From NCBI GenBank assembly GCA_964187785.1, contig OZ076409.1, forward strand, positions 55,058,001-55,122,000: a stretch of DNA of 64,000 nt, given 5' to 3'. Shown here in pieces: positions 8,109 through 47,126 of this stretch. Every line of letters starts with the position of its first letter. The first letter of the stretch is position 1. The translations under genes were made by a program, and so were the position numbers. The DNA is from Amphiscolops sp. MND2022 (Eukaryota). Under the pieces are notes generated by a model. That model saw only the letters and a list, made by a program, of their open reading frames with translations. It searched no databases and had not been told where the DNA came from.

Positions 8109-11100
8109 AGCCAACTAATTTCTTTGGTGAGAAGGCTCTTTTTGAACTTGAAGGCTTACTTAGAAGTGCCTTTGCAGATAGAATTGTATCTGCCAAGTAT
8201 CCAGGTGGCGAAAGCATGTGTGACATTAGGCAGGTGCCTATCATGCACATCTTGCGGTACCACACTGGAAACAGTTCTGGAGTACCAAACAACCAACTGA
8301 CAACTTTTAAAACATCAGCGGATTGATTTCGCTCTGTCTAAGTTGTAAAATACAGGGGAAATACTGGATCTGACTGGACTTCGGACTCTGCTGAGGAAGC
8401 AAAAGTTGGCGAAATCGAAAGAAAGATTGGAGTCATTCACGAAGATGTCAGATAAAATCAATGAACACGTGGAGTTTAACATGGAATCAAGGCGCTTGTG
8501 TTTTGAAAAAAAAACGGACAAGATCATTGTCAAGCAGGGAGACTTACCGGAAAAAATGAAAATTTCTTGGTTGAAATGAAACCGAACTCCGAAGCTAAGA
8601 ATCTGAAACTGATAAAGAAAGAAACCCTGGAGCAACAGAAGAAGAACAAATTTGAGAACGAAAAGAGGAAAGCAAATTTGGTACGATTTAGAGAACCTGA
8701 AAGATCAACGCAGCGAAGGAAAGGATGGGAAAAACGCGGAAATGTATTTTATCTCGTACGAGGACCGCCATTTCATTTGGAGCTGCAAGGAAGAAAAAGA
8801 AACCACCGGAGATTGAAGGGAGCAATGATAACTGACTACGTACTTCATCGAATGCGCTACTGTACAACGTTCATTGCCTGATTAACCGTGAAAGATGTCT
8901 GGAGTTTGCTGACTTCGTACCAAGACACAGCTATGATTCGACAATATCTACTGAGACTTGGCTGAAACACGAGGAACATCAAAATTTCGGAACTGTTCTG
9001 GACCCACTACAATATCATCTGTGCTGATAGACCAACTGCATATAAATCGGAGACGTCGAACCACGGTGGTTGCCTTTTAGCTACTGAAAAATCTTTACCT
9101 TAATTGGAGCTGAACTTCGATAGATTACGTGAAAGACTTCATGTGTCGCTACTGATTGTTAAATTGTAGAAGGAAGCTGCACTATACATAGTCTTGCTGT
9201 TCAACAATCAAAGAGGGAGCCCTTCTCGGCTGTCAACTACTCAATTACAAGCTTTCTTAGCATTGCTGAAAACAACAAAGAATGGAAATCTCTAACTAGC
9301 TGGAGATTTTAGTCTAGTTGATATCGACTGGGAAACATACAGCTCCCGTGACGACTATGATATCCACTTTGTTTCTAAGACCTCACTGTGAAACAGTCCG
9401 TGGATTTTAAGATTGAAAGTCTTCTTGCCTGGACCTGGAATTCTGCCGGATGGAATCTAACATCATCGCGACAGAAGTAGTAGAGGACATTCCACTGTTT
9501 TCAAATTCTTTACCAGTATCATTCGAGCTGAGCAGCTGTACTACGAGAACATGAATGCACTGATGACAATGCACCCATTCGAACTTTATTTCAATAACAA
9601 CGTCGATGTGATTTGAACGCTTTGGCATGAGTCGCTTCACAAATTGATTGAACTGAACACTCCTGTTAGAACACGCACAAGGCAACTGCATCCGCCTTGT
9701 ATTATATCGGAGACATCCCATTGTCTTAATTATCTCAATACTCTGCGAAGAAAGGCGATTCGGAAAATAGTGCAAAAACTCACAGCGCTTGATCAATTGG
9801 AAAAGAAATGGGAAGAAAGGCAATCAACACACCGTCAACAGTACGAAGTAAAACTCTTTGCAAAAAGAGGTAAATCAGAAACATTCAAGTGTTTCCAATA
9901 TTCAAAATTTTCAATGAAAACAATTACCTCCGAAAAAAAGAACACTCGCAAATGAAAGTGAGTGCTGTCGAGGACCTTGAGCGAGCTAAAATTTTCATTA
10001 AAAATTTCATGTCAATAGTGACAGAGAATGATTACAGAACCTTCGAAACTAGTAGATAGCAAATTTTTTGAAACGAAGAGACGGAACTCACCGTGTTGCT
10101 TTTTAAAGAAGATCTGGAAACTCTACAAGTTTTGCAAAGTAGAAGCGCCAATAATAATTCACCATTTTTCCAATGAATGCTTGCGCATTATCGCAAAATC
10201 CTTGATGTTACTTTTCCAAAGTATCAAAAGACTACCTAAGTTCCCAAGCATTTGGAAGCTTGGTAATGTGCCTCCTATCTGAAGAGATGCGAAGAAGAGG
10301 TGATTTGCCCAAATATAGGCATGTAATCTTTCTACCTATTGTCTCGAAAATCTTCGTAAAGCTCATAGCGAGGACGTTATGAAACAAGAAGCAAAAGTCA
10401 CTAGTAGAGACCAACACGGTTTTCTTCCTAGAAAATCTGTCGTCATCCCTTTTTTGCACAGTCTGTCCAAGATATACCAAAAAATCAATGTAACTAAAGA
10501 CTATCTCACTGACAGAACACAAAGTGTTAGGGTAAATGGCGTTGTTCCGGAAAAGATTAGTAAATTCATTCGGTGTCCTTCAGGGATCGGTTGTTCGACC
10601 CATCCTGTTTTTGTTGTGTATCAACCACTTGCTGCTTGTAGTATTCTCATCCATAGCACTACTGTTCGCTGATGATCTGAAATTGATCAGTAAAACAGCT
10701 ACGAAAAATCTGACTGCCTGACAGAATTTTATCAGCAATCTTTTTTCCTTGAGTCTTCAAAATTGCCTCCCCTTCAAGTACAAGGGTTCTTCGGTTATTA
10801 CATTTACTTTTGGAAGAAATCATGAACAGCAGGAGTTGCTGCGTGGACATATTGGATTAAAGCTTCGGATTATAGCAAGGGACCTTGGACTTCAAGTTGT
10901 GGAAGAGCTCAGATTGACTGAACATTTCAAAACGCGATTTGGAAAGGCAAGGCGATGTTGGTATCTAATTAAAAAGAACACTAGCCTAAGAAGTGCTTCA
11001 TTTGCGAAAAGTCACCTCCACAGCACTTTTGGTTGTCCAATTCTTATGTTTGCATCTGACTGCTGGACCTTAAAAGGAGTGATTATCGGATCATGTATCA

Positions 11101-11899: not shown

Positions 11900-14036
11900 G
11901 GGGGAGAAGTTTGTAGCATATTAATTTGTCAAGGAGCTTTGAAACAGTAAACAGGCTGCTAATGGGTCTATTTTGTCGGAAAGATACATAGGTTAACATT
12001 AAGATTAAAGAAAAAGTGATACGACTTAAGTATTGAGTCGAAAAAATTAATCAGAAGCACATAAGAGATTTTGTCGGAGCCATTCGCTTTGCTACATGAA
12101 GTTCGTTCGATTAGAGCGTCGTATATTTCAGTGGTGTTGAAGGGGAGTTCAGTCAAAATTGTCCAAGTTGATTGCTCAATGGTTGCATGATAAACAGCTT
12201 GAAAAAAAAACGAAATGAAAAGAAACATTTAACATGTTCGCTTTCTCAATATTTGGTTGTGGCGTTTCATTGTCCAGGTAAACTTCATTGGGCAAGTAGT
12301 TCGAATAGTTCATAAACTAGGTAGTTTTGTAGGTTCGAGAATTTCCCTCCTTGAAAAGGGGATATTTCGTATTGATATTGCTCGAATTTTAAGTAAAGTG
12401 GGAGTTCAGATGTGAGACTCTCGATTTACCGTTCTTTGAGGATTGACGGAGTGCGTGAGCATTCTGCAGTTTTTTGAAAAGATAGGATGTTTTTGATGTT
12501 ACCCAGGGTAATAGGTGCATCCAGTGATTCGTTTGACTTGGTATGTGAGTTTTTATGTTTTGTACAATCTGTCATACGTCAAGCATCGGTTCCTCATTAC
12601 GCAAACAGTATGAGTTGAATGGCGTCTGTTTTATGAAGTCAATAATCTATTTCCAGTCAGCTTTCTCCAGTCATTTGGTGTTGTATCCACGGGATTTAGG
12701 AAGTCTGAGGTTTTGACGTGAAGATTTAAGTTGGCTGCGTATCGTTGGTGGTTAGCGCTCAAAAGGAATTCAAGATGAGTATAAACTCCTACCTTGACGA
12801 GAAAAGCATCATGCTTGTTAAATATGAGGATATTGAGTGGCTTCCTCTTTTTCGTAATGGTTAGCTGTTCTAAGTTTGCAGAGATCATCTGGTTGAGGCA
12901 GTGCTGTTCTTCCCAGTGTGTTGAGGTCATCGACTGCGGTTCGGTGTAACTAAAATTGATGTCTCCCACAATGATGCAACATTGGTTGAATTCGTATTTC
13001 TTCTTGTGAAGAAAGTTCATCAAAGAGGTGAACTGGGCTGTTGGCCAGGGGTAACATCTACCACTTGGGCCGCTGAATAAGCAACAGGTAAGGATTAGTT
13101 CTTTTAAAAGAAGTCGTGTGATTTTGATAGTCACATTTAGTGGCACAGCTTGGGTTGTTTTTGGAAAAACCGATAAAACGCCTTCATGTTTCGTGAGACC
13201 ATTTACACTCAGTCGGTTTTTTCGGTTCATTTTATATTTCGACAAAATAGAGCGACATTGGTTATATTTTCTGTCAGCCAAGTTTCAGTGAGGCAAAGTA
13301 TGTCGTAGACGTTAGTTACTTGACTAGCATTTGAGAAATTTGGTTCCTCGTTCGGTTTCCAGGAGACTTCGGAGGTTGTACACTACCAGAATGACAGTCA
13401 ATGTTAGTCAAAACTCGCTCTCCGTACGGGGGAGCTTATTTTCGACTTTGGTCCATTGATTGTTTTTACGTATTAACAAGAAACCGTCTTTGACTCGGAG
13501 ATCTTTTGATTTTGTGCCCTTGTGGATCAGGTGAATCTTTTCAATAAAGCTTCGTTTTTTAACACGGTCTCATTCTTCGACAATTGTCCGCTTTGATAGC
13601 AGGATGACTGTATTTCAGTTTCATTGCAGTGGGAAGAATCGTTTTTCGCTGCCACACCATGGGAACTACTGTAAGATCGCTCTCGTTTTCTTTTCCTCAT
13701 ACAGCCCTAGTCTAATAATGTCACTAAGTTCCGCATTCACCTCAAGGTATGACAAAATCTTTCGAAAGTCGCTGCAGTCGTGTTCGTTTCTCAGGCTGGC
13801 AATCTTGTCCTTTAGATCTGGGATTAGTCGTATCCTTATTACATCATGTTTTTCTGTCAGAGATGCTAGTTTCTTGTTAGGCTGGGATCCATCTCGATCC
13901 CTTGGTAAGCGTTGCGTATCTCGTTCTTCACTAGAAAAGATTTTGTTTCTCAGACAGTTTTTTTTTCATTTCAACGATTTCAGACTCCACATGCTCCATT
14001 TGCATATTATTTTGATTTTAATTTGCGCTGTGGTAA
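11900..14036 (-). mobile_element. Degenerate APE-type LINE, 3' part (ORF1 tail, endonuclease, start of RT), interrupted by the large Gypsy element
   Basis: ORF 12631-13281 has HEGVL, IVGDINF and SANH endonuclease motifs. ORF 11968-12228 has KANGSDKIS (K.pG.D.I, pre-RT motif). Coiled-coil-like minus-strand sequence continues up to the LTR edge at 14036. Confidence 0.7.
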
Positions 14037-14747
14037 TGTAACGTCAAGCTAACAGCTACATTCCAGAACCGGGACAATGCCCAGGTTGCCTTAACAAGAG
14101 ACCAGTGTCTTACAACAACCTAAACATTAGTTTTTGGTCCCAAATGGTCTCTGTAGGGACTTTTCCAAGACGCCGAGGAGACTCCTCATATTAGAGCTCC
14201 GTGGCGACGTGCCGGCACACTCAAAGTCCGGACACGTCCCAGAAGCACGTAAAAACGGTCCTAAAGGCTTCCTGCGATCCTACATACCTCCGAGGTCTAA
14301 AAACAGGGGTTTAGTCAGAGCACATCTCAATTAAGTGAATAATGTCTAAAATCAACACCTTCCAGGTTTACCATTAACAAATACCTGAAAATCTGCCAAA
14401 ATACTACAAAACAGCACTGGGGAGGCATTCTGAACAGTTCTCAGCGAGTTTTGAGCTTTGGGTTCAACTCACGCAAAAATCGCACCTTCTTCTTCATCTC
14501 TTTTCCGGCTCATTCTTGCGATTTTCCGGTTTTGATGGCACAACACTGGGGTATTGGCTAGTTTCTGTTTCTGAATATCTTCTTTCGCCGCTTTTCGGTC
14601 TTCTCTGTGTTCTGGGGGGGTCTTTTTGCTTTGTGTGTGCTTCCTTTTCGATTTCAACGACCTGCTAGGTCGGCCATTTTGATTCGCACACTTTTTGGGT
14701 ATTCTTCGAATTTTTGAAATTTTTGACCTTGACTGGTGGACGTTACA
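14037..14747 (-). repeat. 3' LTR (711 bp)
   Basis: TGTAACGTC...GACGTTACA 9-bp terminal inverted repeat; near-identical to 28385-29095 (about 4 substitutions counted by eye). Confidence 0.97.
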
Positions 14748-14760
14748 TCCTCCCCGGGCC
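14748..14760 (-). other. Polypurine tract (PPT)
   Basis: Minus strand reads GGCCCGGGGAGGA directly before the 3' LTR. Confidence 0.7.
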
Positions 14761-15995
14761 GTAGTTTGTCGTCCTCGGCAAACGAGAGAGAATGATACAT
14801 ACCCAGCGGGTCTTTTAGCAACATTATTTCATTTTTTTTACTGCTCCAAATTTCTGCATCATTTTTACAGCACTTTTTTTTTGACGTTAGCACTTTTTCA
14901 TCTTTTGAATTTAGCACTTTTTCAACATTCTAGAGGATAAAAACTTTTTCTCTAAAAGAAAACTCTTTCCACTCGTTTCAATCTAGTTAAAACTTCTTTG
15001 AAGGGTGGTAATGTACGCGGCATTCCAAGAATTGCAAGAAAGCATAGTTGCAGGAATTTCAATTGCAAATTTTTTGTTTTTGGGCAGGGAGGCACCAAGT
15101 TGGGACCCACCTACCAGGTAGGGTATAACAGAATGCACAATAGCACTTGAATCGGGTGTAATCAAAGCGTTGCAATGCCAAATGAACAGCTCCAATATAG
15201 AAACACTACAAATAACACGTCAAAGAAGATCACAACGTGAGAGTCCATTCAGTCCATCGTGTTCTGATGTTTGTTTGGGATCCCTTTCCACTGCGCTCAT
15301 TTTGAGTTCCAGGAATTCATTCATCGTCCACTCAAGTGTATAAAAGTCTGGCAGAACAAGCATTTCTGAAGTCAACAACCATGTGGCTTGAATGTATAAC
15401 ACTATTCAGACGACAAATACGTGATTGTATCTGGAACCGGTTCCGTATGGGGTGCTTCGCACAAATCGCAGGCTGAGTCAAATGTTTGGAGGCTGGTGGT
15501 TTGAAATTGACCACATATTCGTCTCTTATCATGTACGGTCTCACCATTCCATAGTTGATAACAGCAGTTGGTCGACGGTGATCTCCGGACAATTATGTTG
15601 ATTTCTTGTCGCTGTCAGTTGAATCCACATTGCTCGGACCGCTCTCTCATCCAAGTGAAAGATTAATGCACTGTGTACAAACAAGAAATGATAGCATACT
15701 GCGTTGGTGTGTAGCACCTGGGGTATAATCTGAAGAAGTTGCGAGGATGTAACTGGGATTTATGATCTGATACCGTGCAGGTTCAGCGAAATAGGACACA
15801 ACTGTAAAACAAGCAGCAGTTGTAGATTAAAACCTTTTTTGAATTGGAGCGAAATACAATATGATCAGACACAGACGAGACAGATAGTAAAACAATCCGC
15901 ATTAAGAACCAGTTCGCCAATTAGTTAAAACGACACATAAGCTTAAAAGAAGGCGAGTGGCCTTTCGAATGGCTATTTCTGAGTGCCACAGGCTT

Positions 15996-18900
15996 TCAAT
16001 CAAGCTTGTGCTTTACGTGGCTAGGGTGTGCTTTGACTGATGCAATCGACACATACACCCTGTCATGGAGAACTATGTCAACGTCTGAGTCAATGAAGTG
16101 ATCTCTCAACATAGAATACCAAGCTGGTAGTATGTTGATTGACCTTTCAGGATCATAGATAGGAAGGTGAACTCGGGTAATTTGAGCTTGGGCGAGCTTC
16201 TGCACCAGATCTGTCAGGCACAGATGTAGCACATCATGTAACGTGGGATGTTTGTTGGAGGCTCTTGTGAATAGTAGAAACATGTCGTTATTCCATGGCG
16301 CATCTGGTGATTTGGCGAGGTGTATGGCTTTTCCTACGGCTGGTCGTAGTTTGAAAATCTCTTCTTGGCCATATTCCCTGATGACGTAACGCGCCATTGC
16401 TGAGTATGACAGAAGATCAGCCGGACAGCATATCACCACAGTACCACGTGCTTGCAGTATATCGGTTTCATCGTAGGATATCCATGGTAGATAGTTCGGC
16501 TTGACTTTCGGGTGCGTTGTCAACAGTTTTTCCGTGACGGTGCTTTGATTGTCTTGACTTGGTTTGAGATGATCTAGAATGGCTTTACGGTCTTGCCACA
16601 CTGTTCTGCGCAAAGGCCTGTCTCTCAAATTCGTGCAAGACCAATCATGAACTACGGAGAGTGCTTCTAGCACGGTCACTGGGTTCTCAAACGTATACGT
16701 GTGTTTGTCCAGCAGGCGTATTTTGGCTTGGCGACAGAAAGTGATAGCTAGTAGCTGTAACCAATGTTGACTAAGGAATTTCCCGCGATAGATATCTGCT
16801 AGATGAAAACAAAGTGTGTCCTCGAACTCTACAAGTGTGCGCAAGTTCTCTAGACAAATCAATAGCGTTCCTGGGTTCACTGGTGATGTTTCGTCCAAGG
16901 AGGTGACTAATAGCCACCAACCAGCCGTTGGGTGATACACATCTCCAGGGGGGGAGGTCACACCGTATTGTTGCCATAGCTTTTGCGCGGTGATACAGCG
17001 TACCATTGCTACTTTCGTGTCTTCTGGCTCTATTTTTCCAAACACCATCGATGGTGGGAGCGGGGGAATGATAGCGGCCAACGTAAACTCTAATCCGCTC
17101 TTGTCGTGCCACGTCCACTCCTTGAACCGATAGGTGGGACAGTCTGAGGGCGGTGTTCCTTGCATGGCCTTTAGCGTGGTTTCCAATGGTGGGACCACAC
17201 CTGGTCCAATGCTCGAGTACGTCTTTTCTATTGAAATTACACCATGATGTACTTGTGGAACATCCTGGTCCTTTGCGTGTATGGATCTGATTGTATGTTG
17301 TATATGGTCTTCGAATATTTCGGTGTCGGCTAAGTCAAGAGCAGGAGCGTCCACTCCCCGGGCCAATCGCTTGTCCGGTGTTCTCACTTCAACTAGGTTG
17401 ACGCAACTACAGTTGCGGGAACCACAGGTTCCACACCTGTATCGTGGTGCTCTGTTACGTCGTAGCTGATAAGGTGGGGCTTGTGAAGGGGTTGGTTGCT
17501 CCGCTTCTCGTTGCTCTGGCGATATGCTTTCCGCTATGTTGGGTAATGTCATTGCACGTTCCAAAGTTTGAGACTGAGCTCTGGCTCTTACTCGGCCTCT
17601 CGCTCGCGTGTATGGTCTGTGCGCTCTTGTAAGTGTTCTGCTTGATGGAGTGGTACTTCCTCTTCTACGACCTTGAGGTCTGCCTCTTGGTCTGCCTCTT
17701 CTAGTTGCAGTTCTCCCTGATGAGGGTAACGTTTCCATGCTTTGACCGGGTTCTTGAATTTCTCTGTCAGTTCCTTCTTGGGGTTCGGCTTCCTCGGCAA
17801 GTTCTAGTCTTACCGAGCTACCAGCTCGAGAACTGAACAGTGGAAAATTACTCAATGTATCAGTTAAAGCTGGGTTCGAGAGCAATGGTGCTGATGTTCC
17901 TGATGGTGAGGGTATCAGACTTGGTGCTGGTTCAGGCAAGACTACTTCTTGATCCGAATACAGTGGTTCTAGGTCATCAATATCGGGAAAAACCACTGGT
18001 TGCTGTACTTCTTCAATAGGTTGACCCATTGGTTCTCGGTCAGATTCCGACTCAGACGGATATCCAAAGTGACTGAACCGTCGACGTGGGATTCCTCGTT
18101 CCAAAGCAGACTGGGCACGTGTCTGAATGGTGCGCGGTGGGACAGGCGCGGTTGGTTCCATTTCGAACGATGCCTCCGGCAGTTGTTCTGGAAGAAATGA
18201 GTCGCGCGATATGTCTGACGTTATCTCCTCATTACTCTCTTCCACGTACGGATCGGCAATGATGGCTACATTCTGGTCCAACCCGAAGGGTTGATGTGCT
18301 GCCCAATCCCATGGCGCTGGCACATGCTTCTTCAGACGTTCAAAATGAACTTTTTGACCTGTATCTAGCACATATAATCTTCCATCTTGCAACACATCCG
18401 TGACCTTGTGAGGTCCACGCCAGGCACGCAGAAGTTTGCGGGTACCACCCTTGGGAATTATATGGCAGAAGACCCAAACGGCATCACCCACGGCATGAGC
18501 TTTTGCCTTCAAGTGTCTGTCGAACTTCTGTTTTTGACGTACCTGCGCTTGATGAGTATTTCGACGAACGAGCTCGTGGATTTCTTGTTGTCTAGCAAGC
18601 AGGTGCTCTACGAATTCTTCTTTGGACTCAAACTCTCGCGCTGCGAATTCTGGGTATATAAACGAGAGCGGAATGGATTTTTCTGCGCCATGTTGGAGCA
18701 TATACGGGGAAAATCCGGTTGTTGCATGTCTAGTCGAATTGTAGGCACCCAAGACTCCGTCTATGTGCTCATCCCAGTCAAGCATTCTGCGAGACGTGTA
18801 GACTCGGAGCAAGGACAGTAACGTTCGGTTCTGGCGTTCCACTAAACCGTTGCCTCTCGGATGAGCTGGAGTAGACGTTACCTTGGTTACTTGCGAAGCT

Positions 18901-21314
18901 TTCATCAATTCTTGAGCAATTTCGGCAGTGAAGTTGGTGGCATTATCTGACTGCATCCTGGCAGGAGTGCCATGTCTCGCAAACCATTTGTTCAGGATAA
19001 TCTTTGCAGTCGTCTGTGCGTCATATTCATAGTGTGCACATGGGATTGCCTCTGCAAACTTGGTAAAATGGTCGATGATGACTAGCAATGCATTATTTCC
19101 TGACGTTGTCTTGCACAGTTTCAAATGGTCAAATTGCACTAGGTCATTAAAATTGCTGCTGTTAATACTCTGTAGGGGGTAACAGGGATTCCCAGCGGGA
19201 TGTTTTGTCTGTTGGCACGTTAAGCAGTGCTTAATATGATTGACGACATCACGTTTAATGCCTGGCCAAGTGTGGCGCTCCTGGATTCTCGCCAACACTT
19301 TACCAACGCCTTGGTGTCCTGATTCATCATGTGCTCTGTACAAAATCTCGTGCTGGTACAGCTGGGGCATGACGATCATACACGGTCGTACGTGCATCGC
19401 GCGTTGCTGCGGAATGTAGTTGACACACAAAATGTCATTTTGGTTCAGGAACAGCAAATCTTTCTTCTGATGGAAGTACCGTTTGGCAAAGTCTTGCACA
19501 TCCTCGGGGAACAAAGCGTCATCCAATGGCTCGTTCTTCATGAGCTTCTTCAGCGCTAGAAGGTGAACATCCCTGTTTTGAGCTAGATGTAGATCCTTTA
19601 TTCCACGCATTGTCGACTGATGCTCGTGAAGCTCAGTCCCAACTAGCCTAAGGACATCAGCTTGTTCTTGACACTGCATTGGCAATCTACGCAACGCTGG
19701 GTCGCGTTTGGTGGTGTCAAGACGTGCCGCTGGCACTTTGGTTGTTACAATAAGGATACAATTTGGTCTGTCGTTTTCGGTTGATGTCGGAGTGGTTTCC
19801 CATTGCACCTGTGGATACCACGGTATGGAGCTCGAAGACTGATCTGAGGTTAGATCCTCCTTTGGTGACTTCTTCAAAATGTACAGCACGGGGAGTTGTG
19901 CTCGAGCTTCGGGCGGAAGCTCCGGATGGTTTCGGATGAATTTTCCGTGTTTGTCAATATATGGCACAGTGGGGAGTTCTTCGTAGTCTTTCTGGGACAT
20001 GAAGCTGAATCCCTTACTCGCTTCTGGTAGAGCTTCCACAATCTTTTCCCGATGCACGTAGTCATTGGTCCTTTTGCTAAGACCGTCTGCATTTCGGTGT
20101 TGCGTGCGTGGTCTGTGGATCGTCTTGAAGTGATATTGGTCGAGGCGCGCAATCCAGCGTCCAATCATGGCTTGATCCATTGAATATGTCTTTAGCCACG
20201 AGAGAGCCTGGTTGTCCACGCGCAGCGTGAATTCCCGGCCTGCAAGGTAGGAATGAAATTTCTCGATAAAATAGAATACTGCATACATTTCCAGCTTCGG
20301 GGCACCATAATTCATTTGTGTTCGAGTCAGTGACTTGCTACCATAAACGATGGGACGAAGAATGGTCTTCCCATTGTACTCTTGTTCTTGGTGCAGTATG
20401 CCGGCTATAGCAACTGCACTGGCATCTGTGTCCAGAACAAAACGTCCTTCTTCGTTTGGCGCTGCCAAAGCTGTGGCATCGGCTAATGACTGTTTCACTG
20501 AGTCAAACGCTTCTTGATGTTTTTCTTTCCAGTAGAAGTGTTGGTTCTTCCTTAACAACTCCTGCATAGGTTGCACCTTAGCAGCGTGAAAAGGAATGAA
20601 GTCCCGGTAGTAGTTCGCAAATCCGAGGAAGCTTTGAAGTTCCTCTTTATTTCTCGGGGGCATCCATTCTTGGATTTTGCTAACAGCTGCCGGGTCTGGT
20701 TTTATACCTTCGGCTGAGACTACCCGTCCGAGGTATTTGGTTTCAGTGCGCATGAAATCACACTTCTCGGCTCGCATCTTGAAACCTGCCTCTCTGAGAC
20801 ACTCGAACACTTCTCTGATCCTCTCCAAATGATCTTCAATTGTTTCGGTGGCAATTACTATGTCGTCAATGTATGCCATGACAACACTTCCATGGCGTTG
20901 TTGAATCTTCTGAAGAGCTCTCGTGATCGACCGCTGAAATGTGGCCGATGCATTGCAAAGCCCAAAGGGCATTCGTCGCCATTCGAACAGTCCAAGCTCG
21001 CACGCGAACGCGGTCTTTCTGCGGTCACGTTTCTTCAGTGGAATCTGCCAAAAGGCCCACGCTAAGTCGATGCTCGTGAAGATTTTTGCATTCGCGATCC
21101 TTGAAAGATTTTCATCAATCCTGGGCAGTGGGAACGCGTCTTTCACTGTTACATCGTTCAGCGGGCGGAAGTCACAGCAAAAGCGAAGCTCGCCTGATTT
21201 CTTTTTCACCATGACAATCCCACTAGCCCACGGCGAGTAAGAGGGTTGTATCAGACCAAGGGCCAGCAAATTGTGCACTTCTTGGTTTGCTTTGGCTGCT
21301 TTGTCGGGAGACAT
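15996..21314 (-). CDS. Gypsy Pol: RT, RNase H, integrase, plus ~750-aa C-terminal extension with macrodomain-like modules
   Basis: RT (SPWASG, LRFCCDFRPLN, MPFGLCNA, YIDD), RNase H (LDTDAS, LEMYAV, VDNQAL, NADGLS), integrase HHCC (AHDESGH...CLTC), catalytic core (QFDH, QSDNA, GLVER) and GPF/Y-like WRGPHKV. Confidence 0.95.
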   Translation of the reverse strand: MSPDKAAKANQEVHNLLALGLIQPSYSPWASGIVMVKKKSGELRFCCDFRPLNDVTVKDAFPLPRIDENLSRIANAKIFTSIDLAWAFWQIPLKKRDRRKTAFACELGLFEWRRMPFGLCNASATFQRSITRALQKIQQRHGSVVMAYIDDIVIATETIEDHLERIREVFECLREAGFKMRAEKCDFMRTETKYLGRVVSAEGIKPDPAAVSKIQEWMPPRNKEELQSFLGFANYYRDFIPFHAAKVQPMQELLRKNQHFYWKEKHQEAFDSVKQSLADATALAAPNEEGRFVLDTDASAVAIAGILHQEQEYNGKTILRPIVYGSKSLTRTQMNYGAPKLEMYAVFYFIEKFHSYLAGREFTLRVDNQALSWLKTYSMDQAMIGRWIARLDQYHFKTIHRPRTQHRNADGLSKRTNDYVHREKIVEALPEASKGFSFMSQKDYEELPTVPYIDKHGKFIRNHPELPPEARAQLPVLYILKKSPKEDLTSDQSSSSIPWYPQVQWETTPTSTENDRPNCILIVTTKVPAARLDTTKRDPALRRLPMQCQEQADVLRLVGTELHEHQSTMRGIKDLHLAQNRDVHLLALKKLMKNEPLDDALFPEDVQDFAKRYFHQKKDLLFLNQNDILCVNYIPQQRAMHVRPCMIVMPQLYQHEILYRAHDESGHQGVGKVLARIQERHTWPGIKRDVVNHIKHCLTCQQTKHPAGNPCYPLQSINSSNFNDLVQFDHLKLCKTTSGNNALLVIIDHFTKFAEAIPCAHYEYDAQTTAKIILNKWFARHGTPARMQSDNATNFTAEIAQELMKASQVTKVTSTPAHPRGNGLVERQNRTLLSLLRVYTSRRMLDWDEHIDGVLGAYNSTRHATTGFSPYMLQHGAEKSIPLSFIYPEFAAREFESKEEFVEHLLARQQEIHELVRRNTHQAQVRQKQKFDRHLKAKAHAVGDAVWVFCHIIPKGGTRKLLRAWRGPHKVTDVLQDGRLYVLDTGQKVHFERLKKHVPAPWDWAAHQPFGLDQNVAIIADPYVEESNEEITSDISRDSFLPEQLPEASFEMEPTAPVPPRTIQTRAQSALERGIPRRRFSHFGYPSESESDREPMGQPIEEVQQPVVFPDIDDLEPLYSDQEVVLPEPAPSLIPSPSGTSAPLLSNPALTDTLSNFPLFSSRAGSSVRLELAEEAEPQEGTDREIQEPGQSMETLPSSGRTATRRGRPRGRPQGRRRGSTTPSSRTLTRAHRPYTRARGRVRARAQSQTLERAMTLPNIAESISPEQREAEQPTPSQAPPYQLRRNRAPRYRCGTCGSRNCSCVNLVEVRTPDKRLARGVDAPALDLADTEIFEDHIQHTIRSIHAKDQDVPQVHHGVISIEKTYSSIGPGVVPPLETTLKAMQGTPPSDCPTYRFKEWTWHDKSGLEFTLAAIIPPLPPSMVFGKIEPEDTKVAMVRCITAQKLWQQYGVTSPPGDVYHPTAGWWLLVTSLDETSPVNPGTLLICLENLRTLVEFEDTLCFHLADIYRGKFLSQHWLQLLAITFCRQAKIRLLDKHTYTFENPVTVLEALSVVHDWSCTNLRDRPLRRTVWQDRKAILDHLKPSQDNQSTVTEKLLTTHPKVKPNYLPWISYDETDILQARGTVVICCPADLLSYSAMARYVIREYGQEEIFKLRPAVGKAIHLAKSPDAPWNNDMFLLFTRASNKHPTLHDVLHLCLTDLVQKLAQAQITRVHLPIYDPERSINILPAWYSMLRDHFIDSDVDIVLHDRVYVSIASVKAHPSHVKHKLD

Positions 21315-21380
21315 GCGCCTTGCCCCTTTTCTGTGTGGTATTGCCTGCGACTCTAGCTCTATGCGATGTTTTGCAATTTT

Positions 21381-24300
21381 TCATCGTCCTATGTCGGATT
21401 TATTTTTCATGAACAGGTCATCGTATTCACTCAAAACGCTCGCTAATTTGTCTCTCGCCCCTTCCCCCCAAGAAGAAAGGACGGAAGAGAGATCAGGGCC
21501 TGGAATTGGCTTCAGCAATTGTGGATCTGTCCTTCTGCGTTTTTCATTTTCCGATAGTCCAATCTCTGACGGCTCAGTTGAAGACAAGAAGTTCTGTGCA
21601 AAGGAACTAAACTCTGAACTCGTGTCCAAATCTAAGTCTCTGTGCACTTGATTCACAAATTCGGCTGAAAGCTTCGAAGCTTCACGACTGTCTTGAATGG
21701 GAACGGAGTTGAACACAAAATTGGTGAGCACCGCTTTCCCAATTACGGTTTGTTCCTTGATTCTTACCCCTTCTTTAGCAGTTTGGTTTTTTAGGGCTAA
21801 GAAAACTACACCGTCTTCTCCCACGGAGGTTAGTGTATCTTCAGAAACAAATACTGCATTGAACTTAACATTACACGGGTTCACCATTACATTTCGGAAA
21901 TGAAACACGTTAGGTTGCTGCGTTATGATCTTCGCGCGCACAACTTTTCGTTCGAAAGGCCCTAAAGTAACCTCCTCGGCAGAAACAACGAATGATGGCT
22001 CTTGGTCACTGACCTCGTGAACTGCTTTGAAGATCCTAGGCGTTTCCGGGTCACGGATGGTTACTTTCATGGCTGCCAGGTCCACCAACACGTTGTATAT
22101 GCGCAAGAAGTTTCGGCCCAAGAGAAAGTCCTCTGAACCAATGTGGTCGGCTATGACTACGAAATTGGTCTTCAGCGTATGTCCGCCGAGCTGAAAGCTT
22201 ACATCCTCGGCTATGCCAACGGTGGTGATGCTTTTGCCATTGGCAGCGAAAAGTTCAATGTCACATGGTGATAGACTCAGCTCATGCTGGGAAGCGATTT
22301 TCTTGTACGCGCTCAATGAGAGGATGGAGACTCCCGAACCGGTGTCTATCATGCCGAAGAGTGGTATCGGCTTTTGCAAAGGAGTTCCGAATGCTACCAT
22401 TAGTGAGGCTCGCTCATCAATCTGGGCCTCTCCATGTGCATCCTGCATTCCGATGTTATAACAGCGCAGTTCTTGCGTGCCCAAATACAGGCCTTGTGGA
22501 AAGTGTCCTTCCAGGACAACAATTGCATCGAATTTCATGTCAACCCCATCAACCGTGATCGCTATGGGGACTGGTGCGATTGTCTTGACCTTCTGTATTG
22601 GGGCTAGCTTAGTCTCGTCACTTCTGGTGAAATGTGGTAAGGGTCTTGAAGCTATGGTAAGATTGGTGTTGCGACAAAGTTCTTCTTTCAATTGAGCCAA
22701 TGTAAGGTTGGGACGTGCTTTTTGTTCTGCTGATAATAACAGGTGAATGGATATTAGCGTCTCAGTACAATTAGGTGCTGGGGCTTCAAGCGTCGTCAGG
22801 ATTTGTTTTTCACCGCAAGTTACGACCACAGGACGTGAGGGGCCTCCTTCTTCAGAAGTCGAGATCACCCGTATTTGATCATCAGTATCAACAAAGTCCG
22901 CGGAATTCGTGACTGGGGCGTACCGCGCCGCTTTCACTTGTTCTTCTGTTGCTGCACTTTCAGGCACCATGCATTCGGACGCAGTGTTGCCCGTACAATC
23001 AAAATTGACGCGTAATGTGGGCGGTCCTTGTGCTGATGGTGCCGCAGGCACAACGTCGTTATTCATGCCATGAGGGTTAGAAGGACTAGTCCATTCACAA
23101 GCTGGGTTCGTTCGACATGAAGTAACTAGTTGTTGCACTGATTTGCGTGCGCGATCTTTCAAAGGGCAATCGGCAATGAAATGTGACGGGTCGCCACAAT
23201 TGAAACACGCTCTAGATGGCTTCGGTGGTTGCTGTCGAACAGCCACTGGCTGTGGAGGTAGCTGCCAATTAGGCGCTTGAGGAGCCGCTGCCAGTATCGG
23301 GTTTTGTTGTCTTGCAAGTAAAGGCTGTTGCTGTTGCTGAGGCGCTGGATAATTCTCCGAGCGGATAGGGCCGCGCATGTGCAAGTATTGTTGTACCGTG
23401 AACCGTAGTGCTTCCACTGTTGGAGGAGTATCCACGTACTGTTCTTGTGCGTACATGAGTGCGAGATTTCGCTTCAACTCAAAGCTGCGTACCCCTTCGA
23501 TGAACCTCTGCATGATTTCGTAGCGCCTTACAGTAACTTCTTCGTTAGGAAAACCTTGGCTGCGCAAACCTTCAAGAGCGTCAAGATACTGCATGTGGTC
23601 TTCGTCGTCGGACTGATTGCGTGTACGGAACTGCTGTTGTATTTGGAACTTGCTAGATCCCGTTCCAAATCGACGCGCTAGTAGCGCAAAGACTTTTTCA
23701 TCCGTGTCGCGCTCAGCCTCGGATTTGTTCATGATGTAGTCTTGTGCCTCATTCTCTAGGAATTCAACGATGGTCCATGCTCTGTCCAGTGGAGTATCCT
23801 TTGCGTGTGCTTTCTCCAAATAACGTTTCATGAGCATTAGCCAACCATCTATTATCCCGTCGCGCGTACCGCGGTATTTTGTTGGTATATTTTTGGCTTC
23901 TTTTGCTGCTAGCAAGGGTTCCAAACCCTTGGACATCGCGGTTGTTATTGCTTCGGCTAACGCTTGCCCATGTATTGTGTTCGGTGTATTGCTTTTTGCA
24001 GCATCTTCTACTGTTTCTGGATTCAAGTTTCTTTGATCGGGTTTCGTTCTGCTCTGGCGCTGAACTACTTCTCTATTGGTGGGTTGCTGAATTGAAGATT
24101 CATTAGTGGATGGTACGTTCGCAGGGTTTAGTGCCACCGGCACAGGTGAAGGACGACTTGGTACCGTCGCCACTACAGCTTTTACACCTAGGGTTAAATC
24201 TTGAACTGTAGTCATGAGGTCCACCATGCGCTTGTCGACATCTATTTCTCTGCGATGCATCGTTTCGGACATGAGCGTCAGTCTTTCATCGGCTTGTTGA

Positions 24301-25343
24301 TCTCTTTGCGCCATTATCGCCGTCATTTCCGATATGCGCTGTTCAGTTAGACCCTTGACTGATGCCATTGTCGTTTCCATTTTGTCCTGATTGATGCGCC
24401 CTTCCGTCTTCATTTTAAGCACTCCTCTTCTCAGTTCCTCCATTTCTTTCATTAAGACTTCAGCTGGCAGAGCATGGTCACCATTCTCTTGGACTAAATT
24501 GGCTTGGACTTGTTTCAACTGTGCTAAGCTCCGTCCCAAGTCTTCCCTTGTGGCTTCAGTTTCCTTGATGCAGCCAGTGATGGTCGAGCTTGGGGACGCT
24601 ATGCTATCTGAGCCTGAATATTGGGAAATTGCCGTCCCTCCTAGTTGGAAGGTACTAGGGCCTAGCAGAGGTGATGTGGTTAAGGTATAGTTCTGGAAGT
24701 TCACCTCTTTTATTGTCTCCCGCTTTCCCAGCTGGTTTCCTGGAGGAGTACTTGCGGTGTCAGCAACAGCGTTTCTACTAGCAGCAAACACTGGAACTCC
24801 GGAACCCAGCGGGTCCACACCCAAACTCACTTGTGGTGTAATCTCTCCTAAGGCCATGCCTGCATTCTTGTCCTCTACACTTTTGCTGATGTTCGAGCTG
24901 GTAGCTTGTTCTCCATTCGAATTTGGCCAATCTGCCCAGGCAATCGCAGAGTTATTCACGGGAGGCCAGACGCTGCCACAGTTCATGGCAGTGCCATTTA
25001 CAAAGTAAGCGCTATCCGAAGATGCTCGAGAGGAGTTTAGTTGCCTGATGTATGCCATTTGCGAGTTTTGCTCGGCATCTGACATGTTATTTGACATGAC
25101 GTCGCATAAGAACATGTTCGCAATCATGTCATCCGCTGCTATCTCAGCACGTGCACTAAGCCTAGACAACTCCTCTACATCGCTTGCAAATGGATTCGTA
25201 GCGTGGAAGCCACTAGACTGCCTGTTCGACTCATTCAAAGACTTCAGATACTCAATCTCGCCTGATTTCATGCTCGATGGACTGCTCTGACTACTGTTTC
25301 CTCTGGTAACCCAGCTTTTGAACAGGGCTTTGGCTTTTTTCAT
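21381..25343 (-). CDS. Gypsy Gag-protease (in frame with Pol, separated by a single TGA)
   Basis: Coiled-coil N-terminus, retrotransposon capsid-like region, CCHC knuckle CFNCGDPSHFIADC, aspartic protease MIDTGSGVS...FLLGRNFL, then a dUTPase-like beta-rich segment. Confidence 0.93.
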   Translation of the reverse strand: MKKAKALFKSWVTRGNSSQSSPSSMKSGEIEYLKSLNESNRQSSGFHATNPFASDVEELSRLSARAEIAADDMIANMFLCDVMSNNMSDAEQNSQMAYIRQLNSSRASSDSAYFVNGTAMNCGSVWPPVNNSAIAWADWPNSNGEQATSSNISKSVEDKNAGMALGEITPQVSLGVDPLGSGVPVFAASRNAVADTASTPPGNQLGKRETIKEVNFQNYTLTTSPLLGPSTFQLGGTAISQYSGSDSIASPSSTITGCIKETEATREDLGRSLAQLKQVQANLVQENGDHALPAEVLMKEMEELRRGVLKMKTEGRINQDKMETTMASVKGLTEQRISEMTAIMAQRDQQADERLTLMSETMHRREIDVDKRMVDLMTTVQDLTLGVKAVVATVPSRPSPVPVALNPANVPSTNESSIQQPTNREVVQRQSRTKPDQRNLNPETVEDAAKSNTPNTIHGQALAEAITTAMSKGLEPLLAAKEAKNIPTKYRGTRDGIIDGWLMLMKRYLEKAHAKDTPLDRAWTIVEFLENEAQDYIMNKSEAERDTDEKVFALLARRFGTGSSKFQIQQQFRTRNQSDDEDHMQYLDALEGLRSQGFPNEEVTVRRYEIMQRFIEGVRSFELKRNLALMYAQEQYVDTPPTVEALRFTVQQYLHMRGPIRSENYPAPQQQQQPLLARQQNPILAAAPQAPNWQLPPQPVAVRQQPPKPSRACFNCGDPSHFIADCPLKDRARKSVQQLVTSCRTNPACEWTSPSNPHGMNNDVVPAAPSAQGPPTLRVNFDCTGNTASECMVPESAATEEQVKAARYAPVTNSADFVDTDDQIRVISTSEEGGPSRPVVVTCGEKQILTTLEAPAPNCTETLISIHLLLSAEQKARPNLTLAQLKEELCRNTNLTIASRPLPHFTRSDETKLAPIQKVKTIAPVPIAITVDGVDMKFDAIVVLEGHFPQGLYLGTQELRCYNIGMQDAHGEAQIDERASLMVAFGTPLQKPIPLFGMIDTGSGVSILSLSAYKKIASQHELSLSPCDIELFAANGKSITTVGIAEDVSFQLGGHTLKTNFVVIADHIGSEDFLLGRNFLRIYNVLVDLAAMKVTIRDPETPRIFKAVHEVSDQEPSFVVSAEEVTLGPFERKVVRAKIITQQPNVFHFRNVMVNPCNVKFNAVFVSEDTLTSVGEDGVVFLALKNQTAKEGVRIKEQTVIGKAVLTNFVFNSVPIQDSREASKLSAEFVNQVHRDLDLDTSSEFSSFAQNFLSSTEPSEIGLSENEKRRRTDPQLLKPIPGPDLSSVLSSWGEGARDKLASVLSEYDDLFMKNKSDIGR

Positions 25344-28300
25344 TACTCACTCTATCCTTCTTTGTGCAAAGTCAAACGTAAGACAAACAAAAATAGGAAG
25401 TTTTCGATGTACTCCCTAACTATCATTTAAACTAAACTATGGGACCACTACGTTCTGGAGCTTGCAGCTCGTGATTGCTTTCTAGATTCTAAATCGAAAA
25501 TAGCTGGCCTTCACAAACCTCAGACTCCAGATTACATGCACTGGTGCTAATCACCACTAATCAGAACAGAAATGTTTGCTACCCCACTAACTGGAGATAG
25601 TTATCCTACGAAAAGTTAAAGATGAGTTTTTTTAAAAATTTTTTTTGAAGTACTTTAGAGGTTACTCACACTAAACTACGCTTTACCCAGCCACAGGCTA
25701 TGCGGTTGGAATGAACAGAAAGGTTTTGGCACGCTAACAGAGCTTTATGGAGATTTATTCAAGAAATCTCCGCACTTTATTCTGTGAGCGCACTCTATGT
25801 TACTCGCACTGCCTTTTATGAGGAGAGCACAAGTAGGGTTACTACAATTAGGGAACTCGGGGATAGACCTTGGGGGTGAGTAGGTGCTAGGAGACTAACA
25901 AACAAGAGAGTTTTACTAATCTGATGATTACAAGATCAATGGAGACACGGTTCTTCACACTTTCAGATGCTACTGTACTTAATGTACTTTGGCGAGACGC
26001 AGCGCGTCCTAAGTCTAAGTCTCGTGGGAAACTCCTAAATGCGTTCTGATTCTTACACTATGCTTCGCATTCGAAGTATGCGTGGCTACAACTGTCAGTT
26101 CGCACTTAGGTGACTCTGGTGGCTGTTAACAGAGAAAACACGATTTTGGTGTTTTTCGCTTCTACGTCTCGTTGACAATCTTTCCACGAACCCAAGATCT
26201 TAGGGTTGAGCTAGCTCTATACTGATTGCCTCAACAAGACGTGCTATGGGTGTCTGGTGTAGAACTAGGGTCGTTGGAGCACTCACTTGCGACTATACCT
26301 ACGAAAAATACGTAATTTTTCGCAAAATTTCTCAAAATCAGCAACTTTTTCGCCAATATGCACGCCTGGAACAGGTGGAAATCACTTCTAGAGCTAGTAG
26401 CGACCTGAAAATTTAACACGGTATACTACTGTGGCCAAATCGTGGGAAAATTACCATCGATTGCGCTAAAATTAATTGCACGTGACTTGGGGTCGTTCAA
26501 CAATGTTATTGCAAAATTTTACAATGTTGTGAAATTCACACAAGTCTGTCAAACTCGCCTTCTAGGCTTCCTAGCTACCTGAAATTTTGTATGCGAGCGT
26601 GAATTATGCCCACATAACAGAAAAATAAGTTGGCAGGGTGCCCAGGTCAATATTCCGCAATCCGAGTCGACAAAACTATAATGTACCCTGTATGTCACTT
26701 TCAGGGGTTAAAATTCACAAAATTGTCAATTTCTCTAAGTTGGGCAGTAGCAAGCTGCTCAAAATGCACAAATCGTCGGGATCGAGTGCCGTATGCACGA
26801 AAATGCAAGAATTTTAGTGCTGGGATACCTGCAAGGTATTGCACTATGCTCAACTAAAATTCAATTTTTTCGACATTTTCGGATCATTTTTGAGCAAAAC
26901 TGCGGCTAAGATTTCTCGATCACTAGTAACAGTAGCGCTACGAAAATTACACCACTAACGTTCCTTTTTGCGGTCTACACGATGGTGCAATCCGTTTTGG
27001 GCTACTCTTGCTAGGAGAGATTTCGACCTTTCTTTGAAACACTATTCCAATGTTCCGATAATGTCGCAAAAATAGCACGTTTTGGGCTATTTCTCAACAA
27101 CCACTGGTTGGAATCACTCGCGGTTTTCGGCGTTAGTAATCTAGTACTCTCTACTAACAGAAAATAGGCAAGCGAAACCTGGCAGGTTCCAAATAAGGTC
27201 TCTCAAAATTGATTTTAGGTTACACCTTGGACACTCTGGGAACACCTATGAAAAACACGTATTTTCCCTGGGAACTTTTTATTCTTCGGTTCCCAGAGGT
27301 TCGGGATGGTTTTAACAGTACAGTAGGAAGGTGTAACTACTTTATTTAGGGGACTGGGGTTCTTTCAATTATTACTTTTGATGTTATACCTCTCAGGTCT
27401 ATGGGGTCCTGTACTCAGGTCTATGTATATTGAAAGAAATAAGCTGTTAAAGTTTCAATTTTAATAGGGGAGCCTTAAAAAAACAACTTGGTAGTAGTGT
27501 CTCGTACTACCAAGCTAGGGAACAGAGCTTTTGGGCTGATCTAGAAGCTTTGGGACTATCGCCCAAGACTTTGCCCTCGTCAAATTTGGTCTTTTTGGCC
27601 AATTTCGACTTTTTCTCAATAAAAATCACACAAGTTCTCGATTTTACACCAAGTTGGCCCAACAAGTTTTTCTGTTCCTGACCTAGCAGGTCTGATGGAA
27701 CGTTTTTCCCGTATTCCCACTGGCCGTATCCTTTTCCACTAATTTTCACCCTTCAAAATCCGTAAAATCGCTATTTGAGCTATATAGGGTGTTGTTTTCA
27801 AGGTTTTCGCGCTCAAATTTTTAATCAACTGGTTCAAACACCCTCAGGGTATTTTTCCCAGCTGATTTTAGTGGGGATAGGCCTAGGAATATGCTTTTTG
27901 GGCCGATTATTAGCAAGAATTGGCAATACAACCCGATTGTCGTGGGTATTCGGCAACTAGAGGGGTACTGGAGGTGTGACGTCTGAGGTGCTCACACACT
28001 GTCGTCAGCTAGCTGGGGCCTTCAGCACTCGTCCTCTCGGTCCCCATACATTGCCAATTTACTGAAATAGAGCTGCAAAACCCTTTAAAACCAGTTCCGG
28101 ATAGGCCGGATTCACTTTTTCAACAGATATTATCGAAATACAGGGGGTACACTGTTTGAAATCGCCGATTTTCGGTTCCAGACCTCGGAAATACGCAGGA
28201 AACGCAGGAAAAACACTACTACAAGGCCCACAGGGCTAGAATGAGGCAATAAAAACAATCTAGGACTCACCAGAAGAATTTCCTAGATCCGAACCTAGCA

Positions 28301-28350
28301 GGGCCGGAAAGCAGGAAAAACTCCAACTATGGCGAAAAGATGGAAAAAAT

Positions 28351-28368
28351 GTCCCTTGTGGGGCGCCA
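28351..28368 (-). other. Primer-binding site, tRNA-Lys-like
   Basis: Minus strand TGGCGCCCCACAAGGGAC matches the well-known tRNA-Lys3 PBS TGGCGCCCGAACAGGGAC at 15/18 positions. It lies 16 nt inside the 5' LTR edge. Confidence 0.7.
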
Positions 28369-28384
28369 TAAAAACTATCCTAGA

Positions 28385-29095
28385 TGTAACGTCAAGCTAA
28401 CAGCTACATTCCAGAACCGGGACAATGCCCAGGTTGCCTTAACAAGAGACCAGTGTCTTACAACAACCTAAACATTAGTTTTTGGTCCCAAATGGTCTCT
28501 GTAGGGACTTTTCCAAGACGCCGAGGAGACTCCTCATATTAGAGCTCCGTGGCGACGTGCCGGCACACTCAAAGTCCGGACACGTCCCACAAGCACGTAA
28601 AAACGGTCCTAAAGGCTTCCTGCGATCCTACATACCTCCGAGGTCTGAAAACAGGGGTTTAGTCAGAGCACATCTCAATTAAGTGAATAACGTCTAAAAT
28701 CAACACCTTCCAGGTTTACCATTAACAAATACCTGAAAATCTGCCAAAATACTACAAAACAGCACTGGGGAGGCATTCTGAACAGTTCTCAGCGAGTTTT
28801 GAGCTTTGGGTTCAACTCACGCAAAAATCGCACCTTCTTCTTCATCTCTTTTCCGGCTCATTCTTGCGATTTTCCGGTTTTGATGGCACAACACTGGGGT
28901 ATTGGCTAGTTTCTGTTTCTGAATATCTTCTTTCGCCGCTTTTCGGTCTTCTCTGTGGTCTGGGGGGGTCTTTTTGCTTTGTGTGTGCTTCCTTTTCGAT
29001 TTCAACGACCTGCTAGGTCGGCCATTTTGATTCGCACACTTTTTGGGTATTCTTCGAATTTTTGAAATTTTTGACCTTGACTGGTGGACGTTACA
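28385..29095 (-). repeat. 5' LTR (711 bp)
   Basis: Direct repeat of 14037-14747 with TGTAACGTC...GACGTTACA ends. Confidence 0.97.
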
Positions 29096-29296
29096 TAATC
29101 TGATGACGTTTTTCATTTTCATAGATGTAACATAGCAGTATGCAATTGTTTCCGAGTGCAGTAATGCCTTTTGAAGCAGTCTCGTTCAAGTTGGAACTTT
29201 TTTGTTAGGTGCACCCTGTAACCGCATGCAGAGCAGTCAAACAAATTTTCGTTGTTTTGAAAATTCACATTACATATCAAGCAGCAGTCAAAAAGA
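29096..29296 (-). pseudogene. PHD-finger-like N-terminal fragment of LINE ORF1 (probable 5' continuation of the LINE at 11900-14036)
   Basis: CLIC-x10-DCSAC-x4-H-x10-C pattern in ORF 29119-29331; same strand as the LINE on the other side of the Gypsy insertion. Confidence 0.55.
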
Positions 29297-29645
29297 GGGT
29301 GGGTGGAAATAGGTCGAAGGAACGGGATCAAAAATCAGAGTTAGTCCTCAGGTCGACTTGCCAAATTTTTGAATGGGATCGAAACAACTCGGATCGAAAT
29401 TTTTATAACGTAGTCAGATATGTTCACATACCCCTAGTGCCCTGAATGCAGGAGCGAAGCGAAGCGGATCGACGTGCCATGTGGCCATGCCTCAATATTG
29501 CTACTTGGCGAAGGGAGCGAAACGACCGTGCCATACAACAAATACGATAAAATTCGACCGCATTCCAATCGATCCCTGCAATTCGAATAAAAGGTTCGAC
29601 CTCTGTCCTTTCGACCGGAAAAATTCGACCTATTTATAGGCACCC
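29297..29645 (-). mobile_element. Mutator-like MITE (GGGTG...CACCC)
   Basis: TIRs GGGTG..AAATAGGTCGAA / TTCGACCTATTT..CACCC; 9-bp TSD TCAAAAAGA/TCCAAAAGA; inverted homolog of 61506-61841. Confidence 0.85.
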
Positions 29646-40156: not shown

Positions 40157-40716
40157 TTAATATTTCTGCTTTAGCAGGAATATTATTAATATTTCTGCTT
40201 TAGCAGGAATATTATTGAAATCTGGAAGCGTCTACTTTTTTTTCAGAACAATTTTTCGGACGATCTGAATAATTCAGATTTTTTGTTCGGCAGTGAGTGT
40301 AAGCGAGAGATTTAAATTCAATTCTAGTGCGATGGAACGAGCGAGTGGTAATTATCCATTCGTATGCTGACGTCATTGAGATGAAGCGAGCGAATGTTCG
40401 TAATTGTGCTTTCGTTGCCCCGAGTTTTTGAGATGAAGCGAATGAGTGTTAATTATTCGTTCGTTGAGAGCTTCGCCTGCATTCAAATGCGAATGCGAAA
40501 CTTCGTCTACGCTTAGTAGTTATATCTTTTTTAGTCCGAGAAAAATTAAAGGCGGTGTAAACTTGTACAGTGATTACATGTAATTGTGCGCTAAATAATG
40601 ATTAACCAAGAGTGTATTGGTATTCCAGATATGATTCTTTTATTAATGAATTTTTTTTGTTTAAAAAAATAAAGATTAAAGCAGAAATAGTACTGCGCCC
40701 CGGAGGGGCCTTTTTT
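40157..40716 (+). mobile_element. Non-autonomous Helentron-associated element (HINE/DINE-1-like)
   Basis: 5' palindrome AATATTTCTGCTTTAGCAGGAATATT (present twice), 3' sub-terminal inverted repeat AAAGCAGAAATA, then hairpin GCCCC-GGA-GGGGC and a T-run. Homologous to 48808-49195. Confidence 0.65.
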
Positions 40717-46856: not shown

Positions 46857-47126
46857 CATCGTTATCCTATGCAAATACTTTTTTTCCAGAAGCGGTTAAT
46901 TTATGTGCGCAGGTCACGGGTGCCAACACACTGTTATCCGATGGTAACTGGAAATATCTTTTCTTTCTAATTTCCTTGGCGCTGAATTTCAGGGTTTAAC
47001 TTTGTGATCCCTTTTGAGATGCAAATTCATTCAAGTACTAGCTCCGGGTACAAATTTTGACTTTGGTACGTGCCTATCTATCGCCTGTGCTTATATTTCA
47101 CAAAGGTTTTCGGAACAATTTTGCAG

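Follow-up and report, generated by a model that had tools for sequence, protein, structure and literature searches.

Tandem TARG1-like macrodomain folds with an altered pocket are predicted behind the integrase of a Ty3/Gypsy element from Amphiscolops

The stretch of DNA analyzed here (the window) comprises 64,000 nucleotides of Amphiscolops sp. MND2022 (GenBank assembly GCA_964187785.1, contig OZ076409.1, positions 55,058,001 to 55,122,000 of the forward strand), and all coordinates below are those of the window. It harbors a complete Ty3/Gypsy element of about 15 kb on the minus strand, with a pair of predicted macrodomains at the 3' end of its pol frame. This frame (15996-21380, minus strand, 1794 aa) encodes reverse transcriptase (RT), RNase H (RH) and integrase (IN) and extends about 800 aa beyond WRGPHKV, which we take to be a GPY/F-type motif. 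An initial annotation, made from the letters of the window, had placed two macrodomains in a tail behind the integrase; the position is borne out, with the tail starting beyond WRGPHKV in the same frame. Its features, with pocket residues named after their TARG1 equivalents and model confidence given as predicted local distance difference test (pLDDT), are:

16059..16490, minus strand: macrodomain 2 (M2), predicted TARG1-like fold; Arg at the Lys84 position (16263-16265), Asp at Gly121 (16152-16154), Glu at Gly123 (16146-16148)
16704..17060, minus strand: macrodomain 1 (M1), shortened, predicted TARG1-like fold (AlphaFold2, Foldseek, VIA); Ser/Ala at the Lys84 position, D-x-[YF]-R-G loop
17061..17252, minus strand: conserved, well-folded alpha/beta addition of about 65 aa in front of M1 (pLDDT 85-94)
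17403..17435, minus strand: CxxC-x4-CxC motif after a YxLRxxRxPRY stretch, a predicted zinc site (model pLDDT low, 29-55)
17676..17699, minus strand: two RGRP motifs, presumably AT-hook-like, opening a basic stretch (15 K+R, 2 D+E in 56 aa)
17700..18260, minus strand: acidic Pro/Ser-rich linker (35 D+E versus 15 K+R in 191 aa), poorly conserved
18402..18422, minus strand: the motif WRGPHKV in the C-terminal part of the integrase, at residue 987 of the pol frame

In their predicted models, both domains, 120-145 aa in length, have the minimal alpha/beta macro fold of the ALC1-like (TARG1/DarG/Poa1p) class. The last domain, previously drawn at 16062-16481, was modeled with AlphaFold2 (AF2) as part of the final 418 aa (mean pLDDT 77, mostly 76-95 per block within M2). 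Foldseek placed TARG1/C6orf130 structures at ranks 1-8 (best E 2.9e-8, template modeling (TM) score 0.83 of the target, root-mean-square deviation (rmsd) 2.5), and in VIA the best match was again TARG1 (Z 17.1, rmsd 3.0, 142 aligned), with DarG next at 15.5. The second, upstream copy, which the annotation had set at 16707-17133, was folded separately and gave a model with pLDDT 79-97 per block. TARG1 likewise filled Foldseek ranks 1-8 for M1 (best E 1.7e-4, TM 0.60); its VIA score (Z 10.6, rmsd 3.5, 122 aligned) lies within 1 of those of Bacteroides 2afc (10.3) and DarG (9.9). The fold check that the annotation had suggested for the two segments thus returned the same protein for each. Two helices follow M1 in the model; no fold match was found for them or for the alpha/beta addition before M1, both of which the fold searches barely probed.

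The resemblance to TARG1 is remote, as Pfam detected neither M1 nor M2 and a single-sequence search of the PDB returned nothing relevant. A search of PHROGs likewise gave no macrodomain match. Family profiles are more telling. A 32-sequence family alignment compared with PDB sequences returned TARG1/C6orf130 chains only (5 of 5 rows, E 0.23-0.3), as did a profile centered on M2 (5 of 5 rows, E 0.005-0.006). A phage donor was also considered: in the ESM Atlas, the clusters matched at 0.90-0.91 consist mostly of phage proteins and have PF01661 assigned to 14-25% of their members, but these are leads and do not constitute evidence.

M1 and M2 are themselves homologous. After five visibly frameshifted rows were dropped from each of the two sets, which had 28 and 27 rows, their trimmed profiles aligned in HHalign with a probability of 74% (E 2.7e-5, score 34.3), compared to a score of 15.2 for the reversed profile and a maximum of 19.3 in 30 column shuffles, and the D-x-x-R of the two profiles is in register. 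The simplest origin would be the capture of one domain followed by its duplication. That both copies lack the glycine loop suggests a pocket change before, or together with, this duplication.

The ADP-ribose pocket can be read position by position, because HMMER alignments to TARG1 contain no gaps between the last central strand and the final helix. The TARG1 Lys and Asp in these alignments are 41 residues apart, which fixes them as the Lys84/Asp125 dyad of the literature (PMC9411070). In this register, DPERS replaces the GCGLD loop and Arg the catalytic Lys, as the annotation had noted by eye. Across 207 proteins that cover M2, a set weighted toward one large family (118/207), the Lys84 position holds Arg in 201 and Lys in one; Gly121 is replaced by Asp in 198; the Gly123 position is Glu in 199 and Gly in one; and the Asp125 position carries Ser (124) or Pro (73) and never Asp. 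M1 lacks the Lys as well, with Ser in 122 and Ala in 23 of 150 proteins (145/150 together), and features the loop D-x-[YF]-R-G. Among nine family representatives (9 of 24 clusters: the seven with at least two members and the two most distant singletons; median identity 42%), Asp367, Glu369 and Arg370 never vary, and Arg330 is shared by eight. This invariance indicates that the new pocket residues are kept rather than drifting.

Several published observations bear on what such a pocket can do. The G123E variant of TARG1 is reported to lose stabilization by ADP-ribose, activity and recruitment to DNA damage while keeping RNA binding (PMC5928194), and the matching change in SCO6735, G128E, is reported to strongly lower activity (PMC5087735). 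SCO6735 is nevertheless described as active without the Lys/Asp dyad (PMC7050489, PMC9411070), so loss of the dyad alone does not prove inactivity. Taken by register, M1 and M2 probably neither bind nor cut ADP-ribose. The annotation's proposal of a non-catalytic module accordingly stands in part: both dyad residues are gone, but the SCO6735 precedent keeps this from being decisive. Its two suggested functions, steering integration to ADP-ribosylated chromatin or damage sites and acting as a decoy against host ADP-ribosylation, are weakened, since each requires ADP-ribose binding and the Glu at Gly123 and Asp at Gly121 tell against it.

Two conserved motifs upstream of M1 were absent from the annotation. 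Of 88 homologues whose sequence reaches across the 260 aa preceding M1, 87 have RGRP and all 88 keep CxxC-x4-CxC. More broadly, 64 long homologues contain the integrase zinc finger (PF17921) with the tail in frame behind it in every case, and 56 of them cover at least 96% of the tail with an open frame and complete domains, although the search favors tail-bearing proteins. The tail had been expected to be conserved in other copies, and the M1-M2 arrangement is indeed retained across families: it occurs in its plain form in 170 of 406 stored proteins and persists down to about 28-30% identity (P0208, P0212). No third separate macrodomain unit was found in the 406 proteins, the few extra matches being cross-matches between profiles or split fragments. 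Relative to two distant families (P0060/P0061), identity is 82-83% in RT, 67-68% in integrase, 43/47% in M1 and 42/43% in M2, and falls below the two domains in the basic linker (26-31%) and the spacer (25-32%); the acidic linker is 26-42% identical to distant families. Within M2, 35 of 144 positions are conserved in at least eight of the nine representatives. A wider search yielded 385 cluster representatives (E up to 0.001); the 150 best among them were listed. Those homologues with a stated source are all ENA records, and many may come from one assembly. Of the 30 stretches matched in a metagenome scan, none was confirmed; a single sequencing run, with no RNA run listed, contained 6% of the words, in short, low-depth contigs. 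As a separate observation, the most distant relatives, P0212 and P0208, both keep M1-M2 and D-x-E-R-G in M2.

The remainder of the host element is arranged as follows:

28384..29096, minus strand: 5' long terminal repeat (LTR), a 713-bp repeat with its TG...CA core one base inside each end
28351..28368, minus strand: primer-binding-site-like TGGCGCC stretch, seen in the sequence 15 nt inside the 5' LTR end
21381..25346, minus strand: Gag (PNMA-like capsid, CCHC knuckle) and aspartic protease (PR), ending at an in-frame stop
20727..21209, minus strand: RT (Pfam RVT_1, E 1e-36)
20133..20531, minus strand: RNase H (Pfam RT_RNaseH_2 / RT_RNaseH)
18729..19367, minus strand: integrase zinc finger and catalytic core (Pfam Integrase_H2C2, rve)
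14749..14760, minus strand: short purine-rich tract before the 3' LTR, seen in the sequence
14036..14748, minus strand: 3' LTR, from repeat comparison with the 5' LTR

Membership in Ty3/Gypsy follows from the domain order PR-RT-RH-IN and from Ty3 as the best solved match: the RT matches Ty3 Gag-Pol in the PDB at E 5e-106, with foamy virus at 2e-32. The two 713-bp LTRs differ at only four positions (99.4% identity), and the insertion is therefore young. Their TG...CA ends are flanked by a 3-nt match (TTA) only, whereas a target-site duplication of 4-5 bp is expected for Ty3/Gypsy elements, and the putative primer-binding site is offset from the LTR by 15 nt rather than directly adjoining it. 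The Gag-protease and RT-RNase H-integrase portions share one frame, separated by a single stop. Because a sense codon replaces this stop in 54 stored homologues longer than 2000 aa, giving one continuous frame, the family evidently encodes a single protein of about 3000-3100 aa and the studied copy is broken at the stop; the same codon rules out programmed read-through. Both the non-coding leader (25347-28383, 3 kb) and the 3' non-coding region (14749-15995, 1.25 kb) are unusually long; an env-like or additional open reading frame is ruled out, with no stop-to-stop frame above 86 aa in either region. Between RNase H and the zinc finger of the integrase, some 250 aa (~19370-20130, minus strand) belong to no Pfam family, and a similar but longer stretch occurs in the distant family P0061.

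Outside the element, a tandem array of at least seven units of about 1457 bp, 76-100% alike, occupies 48981-59077, and a single related piece lies at 40404-40575; Rfam returned no match for the array or anywhere else in the 64-kb window. Also present are a fragment of a second, distant Ty3/Gypsy-like RT (7293-8117, plus strand; 26-27% identical to the element's family), short frames that by eye resemble decayed RT and endonuclease pieces of non-LTR elements (long interspersed nuclear elements, LINE; 10319-10672, plus strand, and 12631-13284, minus strand), a dispersed 308-bp repeat in opposite orientation (29297-29604 and 61534-61841, 92%), and, at 44741-48456, inverted repeats nested within one another that look like small non-autonomous DNA transposons.

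We propose that the tail is an ADP-ribose-independent tether to nucleic acid or chromatin carried on the integrase, a reading to which we give an even chance. A TARG1-type eraser of ADP-ribose would have been captured and then duplicated. The tail would stay on the integrase after protease processing, behind the flexible acidic linker; contact with DNA would fall to the RGRP/basic stretch and the cysteine motif; and the pseudo-macrodomain pair would bind nucleic acid or a chromatin protein through a newly formed, conserved surface made up of the invariant Arg, the Asp-x-Glu-Arg, the Arg-Glu and the Pro-Ala-Asp residues. In the old pocket, the acidic loop residues would occupy or repel the diphosphate site and might form a pair with the Arg found in place of the catalytic Lys. 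The integration complex would thereby be tethered by the tail, as it is by the chromodomain in chromoviruses. It is possible, if somewhat doubtful, that the captured eraser became a new integrase-targeting module in a narrower sense, in which AT-hook, zinc knuckle and duplicated pseudo-macrodomain recognize a mark or protein on chromatin that is not ADP-ribose; such a macrodomain module would parallel the chromodomain of chromoviruses.

A number of points weigh against a tether that has left ADP-ribose behind. The tail is conserved far less than RT or integrase, occlusion of the pocket is read from sequence register only, and the single Lys at the Lys84 position belongs to P0212. The presumed adenine-binding position holds an Asp in 193 of 207 proteins and all nine representatives, which would fit retained nucleotide recognition; the register there comes from the TARG1 fragments of the initial annotation and the usual TARG1 numbering rather than from a tool alignment. 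The positions that we take, from the same fragments and numbering, to be Gly41 and Gly43 are variable and Ala (in 201), respectively. M2 is net acidic (14 K+R versus 18 D+E) and M1 neutral (11/12), so direct nucleic-acid binding by the domains themselves is not favored and, given the charge of M2, binding to a protein is no less probable for them. Finally, cleavage at a protease site within the long low-complexity linker could release the tail.

Three other explanations compete with the proposed tether. M2 may recognize or remove ADP-ribose by a changed mechanism, with the Arg positioning ribose or phosphates and the loop opening as in SCO6735; the tail would then counter the ADP-ribosylation that the host places on RNA, cDNA or proteins of the element, or read ADP-ribosylated chromatin. 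The conserved adenine-site Asp and Thr-[Lys/Arg] position would suit such a mechanism, as would the gathering of invariant residues around the old pocket and the reported activity of SCO6735, whose phosphate loop can stay open. We nonetheless consider it somewhat unlikely, because acidic residues stand at both loop glycines in 198-199 of 207 proteins, because the Gly-to-Glu change is reported to abolish binding in TARG1 and to strongly lower SCO6735 activity, and because M1 is equally without the Lys. Alternatively, the element protease may cleave the tail into an accessory protein that binds either a host factor or the element's own RNA, in the cytoplasm or in the particle, with no role in target-site choice. 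About 270 aa of poorly conserved, low-complexity linker between integrase and cysteine motif would accommodate the cut, and both the RNA binding reported for TARG1-G123E (PMC5928194) and the precedent of the SARS-unique domain (SUD; PMC2674928) show how the product might act. Against this, the tail is in frame with the integrase in all 64 long homologues, and no conserved cleavage site was identified, though no systematic search for one was made; RGRP motifs, moreover, are typical of nuclear DNA binders. We regard cleavage to an accessory protein as unlikely. Very improbable, in our view, is a decaying passenger without present function: the lack of a Pfam match, the 10-18% identity to known macrodomains and the loss of all catalytic residues would fit decay, but the open frames and complete domains of the long homologues (in a search that favors them), the persistence of the M1-M2 layout down to ~29% identity and the conserved M2 positions noted above do not.

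Among known systems, human TARG1/OARD1/C6orf130 (4J5S, 4J5Q, 2LGR) of the ALC1-like class is the best structural and profile match and shares with the element domains both the fold (TM 0.83 for M2, 0.60 for M1) and the length of the loop between the last strands and the helix. The element domains differ in being only 14-16% identical to it, in forming two copies fused to a retrotransposon Pol, and in their pocket: M2 carries Arg for Lys84 and Asp/Glu for Gly121/Gly123, M1 has Ser/Ala and Asp/aromatic residues at these positions, and neither retains Asp125. DarG, SCO6735/Bt_1257-type proteins and yeast Poa1p are the next-best folds (Z 15.5, 12.9 and 12.1 for M2; 9.9, 10.3 and 9.1 for M1). Their class tolerates loss of the TARG1 dyad; the loop glycine, however, is kept in TARG1, DarG, SCO6735 and Bt_1257 and replaced in the element.

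Chromoviruses are Ty3/Gypsy elements with a chromodomain at the integrase C-terminus. The present element resembles them in the order PR-RT-RH-IN, the GPY/F-type motif and a folded module added after the integrase, but its module is about 750 aa long and combines RGRP, the cysteine motif and two macro folds. Pfam scans detected no chromodomain after the motif, and in the models the folded portions of the tail adopt macro folds. Domain databases also annotate Poa1p-like macrodomains in some invertebrate Gypsy polyproteins. Full-text searches listed no paper that describes a TARG1-like domain at a Gypsy integrase C-terminus, although subscription papers, repeat databases and supplements may contain such a description. 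What sets this element apart is that the domain is duplicated, that its pocket-blocking loop is fixed and that RGRP and cysteine motifs lie next to it. Among viruses, fish epsilon-like endogenous retroviruses are reported to carry macro domain open reading frames (PMC4977317, citing Basta et al. 2009). They too are retroelements with a captured macrodomain, but it is retroviral and encoded as additional frames, and the passages that describe it mention no tandem or pocket-altered form. SUD (SUD-N/SUD-M) is closer in arrangement, as a tandem macrodomain pair within a viral polyprotein that is reported not to bind ADP-ribose but to bind G-quadruplex DNA/RNA (PMC2674928). It differs in belonging to another macrodomain lineage (Z 6.6-7.6 only) and to a cytoplasmic RNA virus without integrase.

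Integrase-tethering modules are known for few LTR retrotransposons, and a conserved pseudo-macrodomain pair would add one; if the proposal is true, the fold of an ADP-ribose enzyme has been reused, as in SARS SUD. Should M2 instead bind ADP-ribose despite its altered loop, this would represent a new binding mode. The Gly-to-Glu change used in laboratories to kill ADP-ribose binding has become fixed naturally in this family, which therefore offers a direct test of whether retroelement macrodomains serve only against host ADP-ribosylation.
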